Origin: Candidatus Multivorans sp.
GTDB lineage: Bacteria > Acidobacteriota > Thermoanaerobaculia > Multivoradales > Multivoraceae
DNA length: 64,000 nucleotides
Assembly (NCBI GenBank): GCA_965247095.1
Contig: OZ251997.1
Coordinates: 2,720,001 to 2,784,000, forward strand
Direction: 5' to 3'
Part shown: piece by piece, positions 59,498-64,000 of the stretch
How positions within the stretch are numbered: position 1 is the first letter of the stretch
Layout: each line of letters starts with the position of its first letter
The notes under the pieces: model-generated
What the model was told of the DNA's origin: nothing
Seen by the model: only the letters and a program-made list of their open reading frames with translations
Databases searched by the model: none
Position numbers and translations under genes: made by a program

Positions 59498-61234
59498 ATG
59501 TCCTCGCTTCCTGACCGCCGCTCCTACGGCTTCGGCCCGTACCTGCTCGATGTGGGTCAGCGCCGGCTGCTCCGGGACGGGCGCCCGATAGGGATGCGCC
59601 CGAAGATCTTCGACACCCTGCGGGCGCTGGTCGAGAACAACGACCGCCTCCTCCACAAGGAGGAGTTGATGGCGATGGTGTGGCCCGGTACCACGGTCGA
59701 GGAGAGCAACCTCACGCACAACCTTTCCGTGCTGCGGAAGATCCTGGGGCAGAGCAAGGAGACCCAGTACGTCGTCACGGTTCCCGGCCGGGGCTACCGA
59801 TTCACGGCCCCGGTCGAGGTCTCTCTTGAAGGGTCGATCGCGGTCCGGCCCTTCGCCAACATGAGCCCCGACCCGGATCAGGCCTTCTTCTGCGATGGGG
59901 TGGCGGAAGAACTGATCGACACGTTGGCCGCGGTCGAGGGCCTGAGGGTTGTGGGCCGAACATCTTCCTTTGACCGCCGACTGAGGAAACTCAGCGCTTC
60001 CTCGGTTGGCGAGAAACTGGGGGTATCGGCGATTCTCGAGGGTAGCCTGCGGAAGGCGGGGGACCGGCTGCGGGTCTCGGCACAGTTGATCCGGACGTCG
60101 GATAGCACTCAGCTCTGGTCCGAGCGCTACGATCGGGAACTGGGAGACGTCTTCGAGATCCAGGAGGACATCGCGCGCGCGATCGTGGATCGCGTGCGCA
60201 CGAAGCTGCTGGATCCGCACCCGGGTCCGGTGGTGGCGCGTCACACGCAAAACCCGGACGTCTATCGCCTCTACCTGGAGGCGCGGTATTGCGTCAATCA
60301 ACAGACCGAGAGCCGTATCCAACAGGCGATCGGGTTTCTGGATCGGGCGCTCGAGATGCAACCGGAGTTCGCCCGCGGCCACGCACTACTCGGGGTGTGC
60401 TACGCGAACCTCGTGGCCTACGGCTTCCTGCCGGTGGACGAGACGGTGGTCAAGGCGAGGGAAGCAGTGCAGCGGGCGCTGGAACTCAACGACTCGAGTG
60501 TGCTCGCGTACCGGGCCTTGGGTCTTGTGAGCACGTTCCAATGGGACTGGTCAACAGCGCAACGGGCTTTCCTGCGGGCTCTGCAGCTCGATCCAGATAA
60601 CTCGACCGCCCACTACTCGTACGGAAACCATTTCCTGTCGCCGGTCGGCCGTGTCGAGGAAGCGGAACGCCAGATCAGAGCTGCCGTAGAGTTGGATCCT
60701 CTGGCGCCCCTGTTCAGCCAGGGTCTATGCCAGATCCTCTACTACACGCGCCGCTACGAAGAGGCCATCGACCAGGCTCGTCACACACTCGCCCTGGAAG
60801 GGGACTATCCAATAGTGCGCTCGCTGCTGGCGGCCTGCTACAGCGCCATGGGTCGCACGGACGAGGCGATCCATGAGCGCCAGGTGCACCTGCGGAATAC
60901 CGGCGGCGAAGAGGAAGCGGAGGCAATCGGGAGGATCTACGCGCAGAAGGGCGAGCCGGGAGTGCTTCGCTGGATGGTCGATCAGCGATTGGAGCAGGTG
61001 AATGCCAGGAATGTCCGTTCTGCCTCCCTGGCGATCCTCTACGGCTGGCTCGACGAAAAGGAACCTGCTCTGTTCTGGTTGGAAGACGCCGTGAAGGCGA
61101 GGCTTGGCGCCGTTCTATGGACCAAGGTGCATCCAGCGTTCGACTGCCTGCGCAACGAGCCGCGGTTCAACGAGTTGGTGGACAGTATGGGCGTGAACGA
61201 TCCCCGCGTGGCGATGCCCGGCGCGGTCGCCTAG
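59498..61234 (+). CDS. CadC-type winged-helix + TolB-like + TPR protein
   Basis: YGFGPYLLD...VEESNL...TVPGRGYRF, SIAVRPFANMS and C-terminal TPRs. Confidence 0.88.
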   Translation: MSSLPDRRSYGFGPYLLDVGQRRLLRDGRPIGMRPKIFDTLRALVENNDRLLHKEELMAMVWPGTTVEESNLTHNLSVLRKILGQSKETQYVVTVPGRGYRFTAPVEVSLEGSIAVRPFANMSPDPDQAFFCDGVAEELIDTLAAVEGLRVVGRTSSFDRRLRKLSASSVGEKLGVSAILEGSLRKAGDRLRVSAQLIRTSDSTQLWSERYDRELGDVFEIQEDIARAIVDRVRTKLLDPHPGPVVARHTQNPDVYRLYLEARYCVNQQTESRIQQAIGFLDRALEMQPEFARGHALLGVCYANLVAYGFLPVDETVVKAREAVQRALELNDSSVLAYRALGLVSTFQWDWSTAQRAFLRALQLDPDNSTAHYSYGNHFLSPVGRVEEAERQIRAAVELDPLAPLFSQGLCQILYYTRRYEEAIDQARHTLALEGDYPIVRSLLAACYSAMGRTDEAIHERQVHLRNTGGEEEAEAIGRIYAQKGEPGVLRWMVDQRLEQVNARNVRSASLAILYGWLDEKEPALFWLEDAVKARLGAVLWTKVHPAFDCLRNEPRFNELVDSMGVNDPRVAMPGAVA

Positions 61235-61314: not shown

Positions 61315-62121
61315 ATGACCACTCGACTTTCGCAACGCTACGGCGGCGCCGCCCTGATTACAGGCGCCTCCAGCGGTATCGGGGAGGCCTACGCGCGGCG
61401 GCTTGCCGATGAGGGCATGGAACTGGTGTTGGTCGCACGGCGCACCGACCGGCTCGAGAAGCTGGCGCGGGAACTGCGCTCGGCCTCGGGTGTGACGGTC
61501 CATGTCGTTCCCCAGGACCTTGGGGAGCGCGCCGGCCCGCGGCTCGTCTTCGAGGCCGTCGACGATCTCGGGATCGAGGTCGGCATGCTGGTGTCGAACG
61601 CCGGCTTCGGCACTTACGGCCCCTTCGTCGAGCAGGATCCCGAGCTTCAACTGCAGATCGTCGAGGTCAACAACCGGGCGGCCGTGGGGCTGGCGACGAT
61701 TCTCGCTCCGCGGCTCGTTGAGCGCGGTCGCGGCGCGCTGATCTTCCTGTCGAGCACGGCGGCCTACCAGCCGGTGGCGTTCGAGGCGGTCTACGGTGCG
61801 TCGAAGGCGTTCAACCTGATGTTCGGCGAAGCGCTCTGGGCGGAGCTCTCGGAGCACGGAATCGACGTCATCGTGCTGTCGCCGGGATTCACGCCCACCG
61901 AGTACCAGAAGAAGGCCGGCATGGGCGAGCCCGAGCCGGTGACCGGTTGGACGAGCCCCGAGCAGGTGGTGGACGCCAGCCTGCGTCGGCTCGGCCGCGC
62001 CTCCTCGGTCGTACCGGGCTGGCGCAACCGCGTCGTCATCTTCCTGATGCGCATCCTGACGCGGCGCGCGGCGGCGCGCCTAACCTACCGGGTCAACAAC
62101 CCGGCCGGCCGATCAGGGTAG
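61315..62121 (+). CDS. short-chain dehydrogenase/reductase
   Basis: TGASSGIG, SNAGFG and YGASK. Confidence 0.93.
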   Translation: MTTRLSQRYGGAALITGASSGIGEAYARRLADEGMELVLVARRTDRLEKLARELRSASGVTVHVVPQDLGERAGPRLVFEAVDDLGIEVGMLVSNAGFGTYGPFVEQDPELQLQIVEVNNRAAVGLATILAPRLVERGRGALIFLSSTAAYQPVAFEAVYGASKAFNLMFGEALWAELSEHGIDVIVLSPGFTPTEYQKKAGMGEPEPVTGWTSPEQVVDASLRRLGRASSVVPGWRNRVVIFLMRILTRRAAARLTYRVNNPAGRSG

Positions 62122-62141
62122 AGCAGTGACGGCGCAAGCCC

Positions 62142-62825
62142 CTAGCTCGCGGTGGCTTCGCTCCCCTCGCGCAGCCCGGCGTAGTTGTCCTCAAGGAACT
62201 CCTCGAGTTCGTCGGTATCGAAGTTGAACGGTCCCATCCCGCCCTTGTAGGCGATGATGCCGCCCCTGTCGATCACGTAGATGCGCTCCGGCCAGCCGGC
62301 GTAGCAGGCATTGGCGGTGTTGGCGATGTCGTCCACCAGGGTTCGCGTCTTGACATCCATCGCTTCGACGAACTCCTTGGCGAGGTCCATGCGGTCAACC
62401 ATCGTCTTCGGCTGATTGAAGATCAGTTCGTTGGTCACGTTCTTGGGCGCTTGCCACTCGTCGTCGGGGTGGGCTTCCTTGATGTAGATGTAGCTGAACT
62501 CGACCGCCGGGCTCCACTCTTCTCGCACCTCTTCGAGCCGGGCCACACGGGCCCGGAAGGGCGGTCACGTGTAGCTGCCGAAGACGAGCACGAGGGGCTT
62601 GGCAGCCCACAGGGCGGAGAGGCGCATCGGATCGCCGCCGACCAGGTCCAAGGGCAGGTCGGGGGCGAAGTCGCCGACCTGGAGGATGCCCTCCGTGCGA
62701 ATGTCGTACTCGTTGAGCCGGATGAGTCCGCGCTCCGCCAGGAAGCGGTAGGTCTTGAAGCCACCCCATCCGAGGACACCGAGGATGACCAGACTGACAA
62801 CGACTATCGTGACCCAGCGGTTCAT
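62142..62825 (-). CDS. iodothyronine deiodinase-like selenoprotein (Sec at UGA 62565-62567)
   Basis: ORFs 62565..63188 and 62142..62546 are in frame across the TGA, giving PLVLVFGSYT-U-PPF...YIYIKEAHPDDEW...YAGWPERIYVI...YKGGMGP. AGGAG RBS before ATG 62825. Confidence 0.9.
62531..62564 (-). promoter_or_regulatory. putative bacterial SECIS element
   Basis: Just 3' of the UGA: CCGGGCC-CGUGU-GGCCCGG perfect hairpin (62538-62556) with GU in the apical loop; an alternative register adds a CUUC/GAAG lower stem. Confidence 0.75.
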
Positions 62826-62872
62826 GGCGGACTCTCCTCGTGGTATGGGGCGGAAACTATAGCGGAACCGCG

Positions 62873-64000
62873 CTAGGCGGCCTTTCCGACCACGGAGACG
62901 CAGCTCACGCAGTTGCCGGGAAGTCCTCCGAGGTTGTGGGTCAGTCCGATGCGCGGGTCGGCGACCTGCCGTTCGCCGGCCTCGCCGCGCAGTTGTAGCC
63001 AGATCTCGTACATCATGCGCAGGCCGCTGGCGCCGATCGGGTGGCCGAAGCTCTTGAGTCCGCCGTCGGAATTGATCGGCTGGCGACCGTCGAGTTGGAA
63101 GCGGCCGTCCAGGCAGTCTTTCCAGGCCTTGCCGCGCTCGGAGAATCCGAGGTCCTCCATCAGCACCAGCTCGGTCGGAGTAAAGCAATCGTGGACCTCC
63201 GCCAGACTGATTTCCTCGCGCGGGTTGGTGATGCCGGCCTGCCGGTACGCGTCCTCGGCGCTCGCGACGACTTCGGGGAAGGTGGTGAAGTCATAGTCCG
63301 GTTTCTTGACTCCTTCGGCCGGCCCGACGACGAATCCGACGCCCTTCAAGAGAAGCGGGTCGTCGCAGTAGCGGTGGGCGTCCTCGGCCCGGCAGAGGAC
63401 CGCGGCGGCAGCGCCGTCGCTTACTCCCGAGCAGTCGAAGAGCCCGAGCTTGCCGGCGATCGCAGGAGAGGACTTGATCCGTTCCAGCGGTACCTCGCGC
63501 CGGAACTGGGCCTTGGGGTTCTTGGCCCCATTGGCGTGGTTCTTGTACGCGATCCGGGACAGCACGTCCTTCAGCGTGTCTTCGCTGACGCCGTACTTCT
63601 CGGCGTAGGCCGGCACGATCATGGAGAACGCCGCCGGCGGCGTCATCTCGAGTTCGGTGCCGTCTGTCGTCGGATTCAGATCGAAGAGCCCGGAGTAGCC
63701 CGAGTCCTTCAGCTTCTCGACACCGAGGGCCATGACGATGTCGTAAGCGCCGCTGGCGACCGCATAGGCCGCGTTGCGCAGAGCTTCGCTACCGGTGGCG
63801 CAGAAGTTCTCCACGTGGGTGACCGGCTTGTAGCGAATCTTCAACGGCTCGGCGAGGAGCAGACCCGAGGCGAGGGTGCCGGCGCTGCCGAGCCAGAAGG
63901 CGTCGATCTCGGCGAGATCGAGCCCCGCCGAAACGAGTGCCTCTTGCGACGCCGTCAGGGAAAGATCGCCGATGCTCTGATCCCAGTGCTCTCCGAAGGA
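62873..64000 (-). CDS. thiolase family (SCP-x/acetyl-CoA acetyltransferase-like) protein; start lies beyond the window
   Basis: FGEHWD, ENFCATG, SDGAAA, EVHDCF, GHPIGASG and HNLGG; frame open to position 64000. Confidence 0.92.
   Translation of the reverse strand, partial: SFGEHWDQSIGDLSLTASQEALVSAGLDLAEIDAFWLGSAGTLASGLLLAEPLKIRYKPVTHVENFCATGSEALRNAAYAVASGAYDIVMALGVEKLKDSGYSGLFDLNPTTDGTELEMTPPAAFSMIVPAYAEKYGVSEDTLKDVLSRIAYKNHANGAKNPKAQFRREVPLERIKSSPAIAGKLGLFDCSGVSDGAAAAVLCRAEDAHRYCDDPLLLKGVGFVVGPAEGVKKPDYDFTTFPEVVASAEDAYRQAGITNPREEISLAEVHDCFTPTELVLMEDLGFSERGKAWKDCLDGRFQLDGRQPINSDGGLKSFGHPIGASGLRMMYEIWLQLRGEAGERQVADPRIGLTHNLGGLPGNCVSCVSVVGKAA

Follow-up and report, generated by a model that had tools for sequence, protein, structure and literature searches.

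A single in-frame TGA interrupts a deiodinase-like coding sequence on the minus strand of the window (the 64-kb stretch of DNA analysed here as a whole). The question raised by this locus is whether the TGA is a stop codon that leaves a broken gene, or a selenocysteine (Sec) codon at the catalytic position of an intact enzyme, and in the latter case which chemistry such an enzyme might perform. We consider it highly probable that the locus is one intact gene of 227 residues, encoding a genuine Sec-decoded enzyme of the deiodinase family. The features of the locus are collected in Table 1. Papers are cited by accession, and statements drawn from them refer to the portions of their text that were available.

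Table 1. Features of the deiodinase-like locus, in positions of the window
Feature	Positions	Strand	Remarks
Complete deiodinase-like gene, very probably a selenoprotein gene	62142..62825	minus	227 codons and TAG stop; Sec would be codon 87
Shine-Dalgarno-like GAGGAG	62839..62834	minus	8 nt before the ATG; read directly off the sequence
N-terminal hydrophobic helix, residues 5-23, putative single membrane anchor	62757..62813	minus	hydropathy and structure model
Predicted Trx-fold deiodinase catalytic domain, residues 50-216, including the Dio-specific insertion (EAHPDDEW ... QP)	62178..62678	minus	profile and structure model
UGA codon 87, very probably read as Sec, catalytic residue of FGSYT-U-PPF	62565..62567	minus	column conservation and alignment with Dio
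Putative bacterial SECIS-type hairpin, 7-bp stem and CGUGU loop	62538..62556	minus	starts 8 nt after the UGA
134-aa GTG ORF, publicly called in place of the whole gene	62142..62546	minus	ORF list and exact-sequence look-up

A reading frame that continues across the TGA

A reading made from the sequence alone (below, the sequence-only reading) had proposed that two ORFs join in frame across one TGA at FGSYT-U-PPF, and this arrangement is found at the coordinates it gave, on the minus strand. One frame of 227 codons runs from an ATG (62825..62823) to a TAG (62144..62142), and codon 87 is its single in-frame TGA. The downstream motifs expected to be intact, YIxEAHxxDxW and PERxYVI...YKGGxGP, are all present in the read-through translation, which carries FGSYT-U-PPF, YIKEAHPDDEW, PERIYVI and YKGGMGP. 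Coding-type substitution in one frame is seen on both sides of the TGA, with variation concentrated at third codon positions (variable sites at codon positions 1/2/3 number 16/14/35 for codons 24-86 and 19/26/69 for codons 88-226).

Translation table 11 breaks this frame in two, leaving an upstream ORF that ends in ...FGSYT and a downstream ORF of 134 aa that begins with GTG. By exact-sequence look-up, the 134-aa fragment is a called protein on a contig of 4,617,209 bp, with NCBI and ENA as sources. Downstream-only fragments of 124-156 aa also make up 117 of the 120 database homologs listed. The prediction that standard pipelines would mis-annotate the gene is therefore borne out by the homologs and by the genome's own call, and the locus documents a systematic annotation gap in which deiodinase-like relatives are recorded only 3' of the UGA.

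Conservation of the UGA codon

The catalytic column was compared across 19 related loci, a set that leaves out L036 and L040, for which tblastn returned nothing; it holds TGA in 16 and Cys in 3. Cys also occupies this column in the database homologs P0031 and P0111, so the Cys/TGA alternation that the sequence-only reading had put forward as a check is present. Orthologs from the same genus occur in 7 of 36 genomes, at 77-97% identity, and have exactly one TGA each, as do the orthologs at 41-45% identity that five genomes of other families in the order carry. Matches at E <= 1e-10 were obtained in 18 of the 151 genomes of a phylum sample, and a TGA lies inside all 18, a count of TGA presence anywhere within the match that includes two unpublished genomes (G083 and G108). 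Codon 87 aligns with the Sec-to-Cys position of the structures of mouse Dio3 (4tr3) and Dio2 (9h48).

A peptide-pattern scan of genome contigs identified 29 Cys-form loci; because the pattern required Cys, it finds Cys forms only and is uninformative on how frequent the Sec form is. C-P-P-F is the commonest form of the motif, with 29 matches among 150 representatives (from a crude regular expression, counted per match and not per protein). The Cys-form relatives belong to records labelled Terriglobia, Acidobacteriota, Opitutales (two with Baikal isolate names), Planctomycetota and others.

The TGA is unchanged in contigs assembled from runs X1, X5, X9 and X15, which come from three studies. 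The X1 contig, which may be the source of the sequence, has 0 differences and no listed change at 62565-62567. The X5 contig has 8 differences over 62108-63000 and the X9 contig 14 over the whole stretch, none of them listed at those positions. X15 is an RNA-library run, and its 301-nt contig spans 62437-62737 with the TGA included, which is no proof of transcription because DNA carry-over is possible. TGA otherwise serves as a terminator in this organism, ending 17 of the 32 long high-GC3 ORFs of the window.

A SECIS-type hairpin after the UGA

The perfect 7-bp hairpin with a GU-containing loop that the sequence-only reading had described 8 nt after the UGA is confirmed. Its stem pairs CCGGGCC (62556..62550) with GGCCCGG (62544..62538) around the loop CGUGU (62549..62545), at -14.1 kcal/mol. 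Perfect 7-bp hairpins with loops of 3-8 nt start at 212 of 128,000 window positions (both strands), and the chance of one such hairpin within a 13-nt placement span is about 2%. The 61-nt stretch after the UGA has a folding z-score of -1.37, and 21 of 200 shuffles fold equally well or better. Folding energy by itself is not convincing, as it does not place the hairpin beyond chance. What carries weight is the conservation of the TGA column, together with compensatory changes within the stem and synonymous-site conservation.

Across the orthologs, 35 of 35 cells are paired, compared with 11-54% in slid controls. Compensatory changes affect two of the seven stem pairs (GC to AU in genome G024 and GC to UA in G010). 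At columns where the amino acid is invariant within the genus, codons are invariant at 7 of 8 hairpin positions and 64 of 135 elsewhere (one-sided Fisher p = 0.03); the corresponding figures in the other families are 7 of 9 and 18 of 70 (p = 0.004), and both p-values are generous because kin are not independent. The five orthologs from other families carry a different hairpin in the same place, GGCGCUC-GGUC-GAGCGCC, with the loop GGUC. A small apical loop that contains a G, located directly after the UGA, is described as a bacterial SECIS feature in the available text of PMC1088965, and is present here. No SECIS family was reported by an Rfam scan of 62100-62900 at E <= 10, of which the sole match was a chance, snoRNA-like one.

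Selenocysteine machinery and decoding

The search for selA, selB, selD and selC that the sequence-only reading had called for was positive throughout. Profile scores of 439.5 bits for selA, 339.3 bits for selB and 260 bits for selD all exceed the curated cut-offs. The genome also encodes a tRNA-Sec (74.1 bits, above cut-off), which ARAGORN reports as tRNA-SeC with anticodon TCA. A second Rfam tRNA-Sec match, of 52.9 bits, is a tRNA-Ser(UGA) by ARAGORN. Among the relatives sampled, selA was detected in 61 of 61 genomes and scored over its cut-off in 60.

From the Sec machinery and from the conservation of both TGA and hairpin, all of which the data show, we infer that selenium is inserted at this codon. 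UGA codon 87 would be decoded as selenocysteine, with the hairpin 8 nt 3' of it acting as a bacterial SECIS element. The hairpin would recruit SelB together with Sec-tRNA(Sec), the latter made by the SelD and SelA of the genome.

If the TGA were instead a true stop, the locus would be a pseudogene or a split gene that yields at most the product of the 134-aa downstream ORF. Public gene calls treat the locus in this way, and table 11 breaks the frame. We nonetheless find this explanation very unlikely, given that orthologs down to 41% identity retain the TGA at the catalytic column, that a TGA recurs inside every match of the phylum sample, and that both halves show coding-type substitution in one frame. 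In addition, the GTG at 62546 is not kept as a start, since the sister families have GTC there, and the downstream fragment would be without the active site. An error of sequencing or assembly at the TGA, or a reassignment of TGA to a standard amino acid, seems to us scarcely credible. Thirteen close and sister orthologs, whose genomes were assembled separately, share this TGA, as do the contigs of the three studies, which speaks against the assembly error that the sequence-only reading had considered. As for reassignment, the database entry for homolog P0012 has W in this column, presumably as a product of its caller's TGA=Trp table; against it stand the frequent use of TGA as a terminator in the window and the existence of a dedicated tRNA-Sec and SelB.

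Membrane anchor, fold and active site of the predicted protein

The N-terminal transmembrane helix that had been likened to that of animal deiodinases is recovered as a prediction: residues 5-23 form a hydrophobic 19-mer with a mean Kyte-Doolittle value of 2.34, and the structure model has a helix at residues 3-31. One K or R lies on the N side of this helix and four on the C side, with 1-2 and 3-4, respectively, across the genus. These charges favour a cytoplasmic catalytic domain in the genus; in the sister families the two sides are balanced. Lipoprotein-type signal sequences, as judged by eye, occur in the distant Cys-form relatives L037 and L042 and, with less clarity, in L038.

The profile and fold searches place the protein in the iodothyronine deiodinase family PF00837. 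The Pfam model matches over its positions 101-236 (of 237), with 112.5 bits (cut-off 27) and E = 2.5e-32. A profile built from an alignment of 19 sequences (A1; query residues 50-216, across the insertion) finds Dio3 (4tr3) at 5.1e-39 and Dio2 (9h48) at 3.2e-38, with the next-best chain at 3e-14. The structure model has a mean pLDDT of 86.2, and Foldseek ranks 9h48 first (TM 0.83 on target) and 4tr3 second (0.76). AhpC-TSA (PF00578) scores 25.8 bits, just below its cut-off of 26.

The residues of the Dio proton relay, as listed in the available text of PMC11592359, were mapped onto the protein by the profile alignment to Dio. Five of the six are kept, namely Ser84, Thr86, Tyr114, Glu117 and His119 (in Dio2, Ser127, Thr129, Tyr157, Glu160 and His162). 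Tyr114, Glu117 and His119 do not vary among the 19 A1 sequences, and Ser84 hardly varies. The sixth residue, Dio2 His182 or Dio3 His219, is replaced by Pro139, a nearly invariant Pro in A1. Also lost is the basic residue that clamps the carboxylate of the substrate (Dio3 Arg275, Dio2 Lys241), with Met197 in its place and M, P, T, L or Q in the orthologs. Given the loss of the relay His and of the clamp Arg/Lys, thyronines are unlikely substrates. No resolving Cys is conserved throughout alignment A1; Cys174 occurs in the genus only, and the Cys of the sister families lies at another site (VCY). The protein lacks a CxxC or UxxC motif, its active site being U-P-P-F.

Candidate functions

By homology, the Sec87 selenolate would lie in a Dio-type pocket, surrounded by a hydrogen-bond relay of Ser84, Thr86, Tyr114, Glu117 and His119 and by Trp124. 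It may take an electrophilic atom off the substrate to give an Se-X or Se-OH intermediate. This intermediate could then be re-reduced by thiols, either by the single, genus-specific Cys174 or by an external reductant of the thioredoxin type. We favour a selenolate-based, thiol-recycled reductase as the function predicted from homology.

Two substrate classes were weighed for such a reductase. The protein may be a membrane-bound peroxiredoxin-like or thiol-disulfide-type enzyme, in which a hydroperoxide, sulfenate or disulfide is reduced at Sec87 and a partner of the thioredoxin type regenerates this residue; we rate this slightly below an even chance. It has a Trx fold, its next matches after the deiodinases, in sequence and in structure, are ResA/TlpA-type oxidoreductases and Bcp/1-Cys peroxiredoxins, and the AhpC-TSA score is just short of the cut-off. 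The N-termini of relatives are membrane-anchored or lipoprotein-like, and presumably resemble those of ResA/TlpA-type proteins. Against a redox enzyme of this kind, the protein is without CxxC or UxxC and without a conserved resolving Cys, the deiodinase match is 24 orders of magnitude better than that to any thiol oxidoreductase, and the conserved Glu-Ala-His...Trp of the Dio insertion probably has no role in known peroxiredoxins. Most prokaryotic selenoproteins with a Trx fold are regarded as redox enzymes, and those who discovered this family proposed such a role for it (PMC1088965, PMC13188914, as far as their available text goes), a view that also counts against a dehalogenase.

A tentative alternative, to which we give a smaller though substantial chance, is a Sec-dependent, cobalamin-independent reductive dehalogenase that takes Br or I off halogenated phenolics, such as compounds derived from halotyrosine, through Se-X, as in the deiodinase half-reaction. 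The protein retains the Dio-specific insertion and five of the six relay residues, and a 301-nt contig of 98% identity comes from a library whose label is sponge metagenome. Organobromines are abundant in sponges. The Dio3 His219 and Arg275 equivalents are lost, though, and the range of records with Cys-form relatives, from Terriglobia and Acidobacteriota to Opitutales, Planctomycetota and others, indicates that the family is not tied to sponges. Reductive deiodination is the sole biochemical activity known within PF00837, and it extends to non-thyroxine substrates in invertebrate homologs (PMC8143656). The active site of the protein is of the animal UPPF type, not of the UxxC type given for bacteria in the reviews (PMC9312934, PMC13188914, available portions). 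That the substrate belongs to neither the redox-type nor the halogenated phenolic class, and is something else, appears unlikely.

Gene context offers no hint of the substrate, as no neighbour is conserved across families when the same-genus loci are compared with five sister-family loci; for a dehalogenase, the lack of any halogen-related or aromatic-degradation gene among neighbours kept across families is a point against. Within the genus, 6 of 7 orthologs retain the thiolase-like gene immediately upstream, which is part of a series of ChsH2-like OB-fold, DUF3604 and SDR genes. At the five sister-family loci the neighbours are unrelated (Branch-type glycosyltransferase, WYL regulator, TPR, methyltransferase, YfhO, DUF6923 and Band 7).

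More broadly, the UPPF-type, membrane-anchored bacterial clade might constitute a selenium-dependent, cobalamin-independent dehalogenase of bromo- and iodo-phenolics in marine holobionts, with Se-X chemistry like that of the thyroid deiodinases. We consider this improbable as a whole; if true, deiodinase chemistry would be an ancient bacterial invention that animals recruited later.

Comparison with known families

The sequence-only reading had noted that metagenomes had yielded bacterial deiodinase-like selenoproteins before and that these had no established substrate, which agrees with what is available of PMC1088965 and PMC13188914. The deiodinase-like protein was first reported as a prokaryotic selenoprotein family by Zhang, Fomenko and Gladyshev in 2005, from the Sargasso Sea (PMC1088965). 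It reappears in the GOS survey (PMC2398784), with 22 Sec and 21 Cys sequences, and in reviews of 2022 and 2026 (PMC9312934, PMC13188914). Since the family has been listed since 2005, the gene described here adds a member to a known family, and its existence is in itself no surprise to a specialist. What it provides is a well-supported bacterial deiodinase-family selenoprotein in a complete genome, with a defined SECIS element, a predicted membrane anchor and an animal-type UPPF site. In the literature searched (subscription papers and supplements were outside the search) we found no experimentally characterised bacterial PF00837 protein. With the features named above, the gene is a well-defined candidate on which to test, for the first time, what bacterial deiodinase-like proteins do, a question that has stood since 2005.

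Like the bacterial family as described in the accessible text of PMC1088965, the protein belongs, by its profile match, to PF00837, has Sec or Cys at the catalytic position, and is encoded with a SECIS-type hairpin whose apical loop contains a G directly after the UGA. The family motif given in the available parts of the two reviews is UxxC (PMC9312934, PMC13188914), and the GOS table, in the text at hand, assigns no CxxC-type motif to the family (PMC2398784). Unlike the UxxC of the reviews, the protein and its 12 closest orthologs have U-P-P-F; the distant relative L039 has U-P-Y-C.

Among curated families, NCBIfam NF038285 (deiodinase_rel) matches the C-terminal domain at 1e-47 (profile positions 177-338 of 347) with 163.3 bits against a cut-off of 250. 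This model does not cover the protein because the N-terminal part of that family, of about 170 residues, is missing here. ResA/TlpA/DsbE and Bcp/1-Cys Prx proteins share the Trx fold and are second-tier matches, with TM 0.7-0.8 on target and 13-20% identity. Unlike them, the protein has the Dio insertion and is without CxxC, and their sequence matches are at 3e-14 and worse.

The animal deiodinases Dio1-3 are the closest parallel in architecture, with a single N-terminal membrane helix (predicted here) followed by a Trx-fold catalytic domain that includes the Dio insertion. The FGSxT-U-PPF motif is shared, and identity to 4tr3 and 9h48 is 29-30%. Thyroid hormone is not expected in bacteria, according to the available text of PMC1088965. 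The animal SECIS element lies in the 3'-UTR, unlike the bacterial, in-frame element proposed here. In the active site, Phe258 of Dio3 corresponds to Pro179 and the proximal Cys168 to Tyr85. The distal Cys of Dio3, which we take to be Cys239 in agreement with the count on the profile alignment, corresponds to Thr160. The equivalents of Dio3 Ser167, Thr169, Sec170, Tyr197, Glu200, His202, Trp207, Glu259 and Arg260 are all kept.

The gene and its reading frame

We identified a deiodinase-like gene on the reverse strand whose frame is interrupted by one TGA. A sequence-only reading of this DNA had proposed a hidden, membrane-anchored selenoprotein formed by two ORFs joined across that codon, with deiodinase motifs, a hairpin and an N-terminal helix; every one of these elements was found in place, and we conclude that the feature is real and was read correctly. 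Besides the motif at the TGA, the read-through product carries YIKEAHPDDEW and PERIYVI...YKGGMGP.

Features of the deiodinase-like gene and its surroundings
Feature	Position	Strand	Remarks
Deiodinase-like selenoprotein ORF	62825..62142	-	ATG start, 227 codons, one in-frame TGA
GAGGAG	8 nt upstream of ATG at 62825	-	read from sequence
Hydrophobic N-terminus	residues 5-23	-	read-through product
In-frame TGA	62567..62565	-	single, in FGSYT-U-PPF
Hairpin CCGGGCC-CGUGU-GGCCCGG	62556..62538	-	perfect 7-bp stem, starts 8 nt past UGA, -14.1 kcal/mol
Stop codon TAG	62144..62142	-	ends 227-codon frame
Four-gene run: thiolase-like, ChsH2-like OB-fold/zinc-ribbon, DUF3604, SDR	62873-64000 and beyond the window (L043:8873-14936)	-	directly upstream, 47 nt from ATG
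578-aa protein, winged-helix Trans_reg_C DNA-binding domain then TPR repeats	59498-61234	+	two genes downstream of selenoprotein gene

Translation with table 11 breaks the frame in two, leaving an upstream ORF and, at 62546..62142, a 134-aa ORF whose opening GTG is GTC in other families of the order (sister families). The distribution of variable sites over the three codon positions, 16/14/35 in codons 24-86 and 19/26/69 in codons 88-226, indicates a coding pattern on both sides of the TGA. The two closest orthologs (G026 and G035; L023:1444-2181 and L024:1444-2181) lack the TAG stop and extend 19 residues further (246 aa), toward the convergent SDR gene.

The expectation that standard pipelines would misannotate the gene was borne out: 117 of the 120 database homologs listed are 124-156-aa proteins comprising the post-UGA part alone, and the 134-aa fragment itself appears among the proteins called on the 4,617,209-bp contig (NCBI and ENA sources). 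Fragment forms of 134 aa and 153 aa both occur in the database cluster.

An assembly error at the TGA is contradicted by contigs from sequencing runs of three studies, in which 62565-62567 is unchanged. The X1 contig is identical across this region and may be the source; those of X5 and X9 show 8 differences over 62108-63000 and 14 over 1001 nt, respectively. A 301-nt contig from a metatranscriptome library labelled sponge metagenome spans 62437-62737, including the TGA, with 5 differences, and is not proof of transcription. In all four runs compared, several other contigs match just ~40 nt around the UGA (window 62549-62593) with 3-5 differences before becoming unlike, which suggests that these communities contain other organisms whose related genes are almost identical in nucleotide sequence at the active site and at the start of the SECIS.

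Selenocysteine machinery

The genome, a single contig of 4.62 Mb, encodes the full set of selenocysteine (Sec) components sought: selA (439.5 bits), selB (339.3 bits) and selD (260 bits), each above its curated cut-off, and a tRNA-Sec (74.1 bits, anticodon TCA). A second match above the Rfam tRNA-Sec threshold was rejected as tRNA-Ser(UGA). Elsewhere TGA serves as an ordinary stop: among 32 long ORFs with high GC3 in the window, 17 end in it. The selD gene (L010:94-2532; about 1848607-1851045 of the contig) encodes an 812-aa fusion in which an N-terminal pyridine nucleotide-disulphide oxidoreductase domain (Pyr_redox_2, 95.9 bits) precedes AIRS and AIRS_C, with Cys rather than Sec in the glycine-rich active-site loop. 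SelD fusions of this type have been described previously.

The SECIS hairpin

Chance would place a perfect 7-bp hairpin with a 3-8-nt loop in the right 13-nt span in ~2% of cases, given that such hairpins begin at 212 of the window's 128,000 positions (68% G+C). By folding energy the 61-nt stretch does not stand out (z = -1.37; 21/200 shuffles equal or better), and no Rfam family matched the hairpin region. The case for a SECIS element thus rests on comparative evidence.

Among eight genus sequences, five of them distinct, all 35 of 35 stem cells are paired, and variation in the stem is confined to four positions, which make up two compensatory pairs. One relative (G024) has A-U in place of G-C through two synonymous changes, and another (G010) has U-A in place of G-C through Ala-to-Ser and Ala-to-Asp. 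Slid partners gave 11-54% pairing and zero compensatory pairs, and the observed covariation was reached in 10/500 shuffles. At columns with an invariant, degenerate amino acid, codons at +1 to +10 were identical in 7/8 columns vs 64/135 elsewhere within the genus (one-sided Fisher p = 0.03) and in 7/9 vs 18/70 among five sister-family orthologs with only 53-63% mutual identity (p = 0.004), both p values being generous as kin are not independent. The sister-family hairpin occupies the same place with a different sequence (GGCGCUC-GGUC-GAGCGCC, up to about 10 bp in some). Both loops carry a G near the 5' side, a feature emphasised for bacterial SECIS elements in the available text of PMC1088965. 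These sequence comparisons argue that the hairpin is constrained as RNA.

The catalytic codon in relatives

A deiodinase-like match was detected in 19 of 61 genomes (60 relatives and the organism's own). Orthologs with one TGA apiece occur in 7 of 36 same-genus genomes (77-97% identity) and in five sister-family genomes (41-45%). The gene is therefore patchy in the genus, yet selA is present in 61/61 genomes, in 60 above the cut-off. The alternation of Cys and TGA foreseen for a selenoprotein was observed at the catalytic column of the 19 loci recovered by tblastn and translated (a set that excludes L036 and L040, which the search did not return): 16 have TGA, within GS[YF]T-U-PPF (13), U-PVF, U-PYC and GCLT-U-PPF (one each), and three have Cys, within GSHS-C-PVY. 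Two full-length database homologs (P0031 and P0111) also have Cys; a Trp recorded in a third (P0012) is taken to be the product of a TGA=Trp gene call. A Cys-only pattern scan returned 29 Cys-form loci (25-43% identity), with record labels including Terriglobia/Acidobacteriota, Opitutales, Planctomycetota and others. In a phylum sample (150 genomes plus own), 18/151 matched at E <= 1e-10; a TGA lies inside all 18 matches, the catalytic column being unchecked, and three also cross TAA or TAG. G083 and G108 of this sample are unpublished genomes.

Gene neighbourhood and topology

The gene context gave no clue to the substrate, and neighbours in sister families are unrelated. The upstream thiolase-like gene is kept in 6/7 same-genus orthologs, within the genus only; at 94-99% identity in six genus relatives, it is more conserved than the deiodinase-like gene (83-97%). 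A PQQ-dependent dehydrogenase gene (L043:3645-5438) precedes the Trans_reg_C/TPR gene. Lys and Arg residues flanking the helix number 1-2 on the N side vs 3-4 on the C side in this genus, which would favour a cytoplasmic catalytic domain, and are balanced in sister families. Read by eye, the distant Cys forms look like lipoproteins.

Proposed function and comparison with known deiodinases

The protein matches Pfam T4_deiodinase at 112.5 bits (cut-off 27), with AhpC-TSA slightly under its threshold; NCBIfam deiodinase_rel reached 163 of the 250 bits needed, its C-terminal half alone matching. A 19-sequence profile aligned residues 50-216 with mouse Dio3 (4tr3, 5.1e-39) and Dio2 (9h48, 3.2e-38), the next chain following at 3e-14. 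The AlphaFold model (mean pLDDT 86.2) gave 9h48 and 4tr3 as best Foldseek matches, then ResA/TlpA-type oxidoreductases and peroxiredoxins.

Recoding components, conservation of the UGA and the SECIS, and a Dio fold with its active-site network are established, and we propose that Sec is inserted at UGA codon 87 in a SelB-dependent manner. Sec87 may then act as the nucleophile, taking an electrophilic atom off the substrate to give Se-X or Se-OH, which could be recycled by thiols, either Cys174 or an external reductant. Cys174, the sole Cys, is genus-specific; sister families carry a Cys in VCY instead.

Thyronine is an unlikely substrate, because the residues that bind it are replaced. A peroxide or disulfide-type redox role is plausible, at slightly under an even chance; reductive dehalogenation of halophenolics is a more tentative possibility, and something else altogether is improbable. 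A redox function unlike hormone deiodination was also proposed by the authors of the Sargasso Sea selenoproteome, whose available text describes deiodinase-like proteins with Sec (4 sequences) or Cys and a bacterial SECIS (PMC1088965). The GOS data, as presented in PMC2398784, list 22 Sec and 21 Cys sequences. In their available text, reviews from 2022 and 2026 list the family as PF00837 with the motif UxxC and regard the functions of such selenoproteins as largely unknown (PMC9312934, PMC13188914). Our full-text literature search, covering main text outside subscription papers, found no experimental work on any bacterial member.

As the bacterial family is already described, the gene is a further member of a family known for two decades. 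When residues were mapped by profile alignment, using roles from the available text of PMC11592359, those shared with Dio3 were Ser167 (here Ser84), Thr169 (Thr86), Sec170 (Sec87), Tyr197 (Tyr114), Glu200 (Glu117), His202 (His119), Trp207 (Trp124), Glu259 (Glu180) and Arg260 (Arg181). By contrast, His219 is replaced by Pro139, Phe258 by Pro179 and the distal Cys by Thr160, and Met197 stands in place of Dio3 Arg275 and Dio2 Lys241. Compared with the UxxC form cited in the reviews, the UPPF motif and membrane anchor place this gene nearer the animal enzymes.
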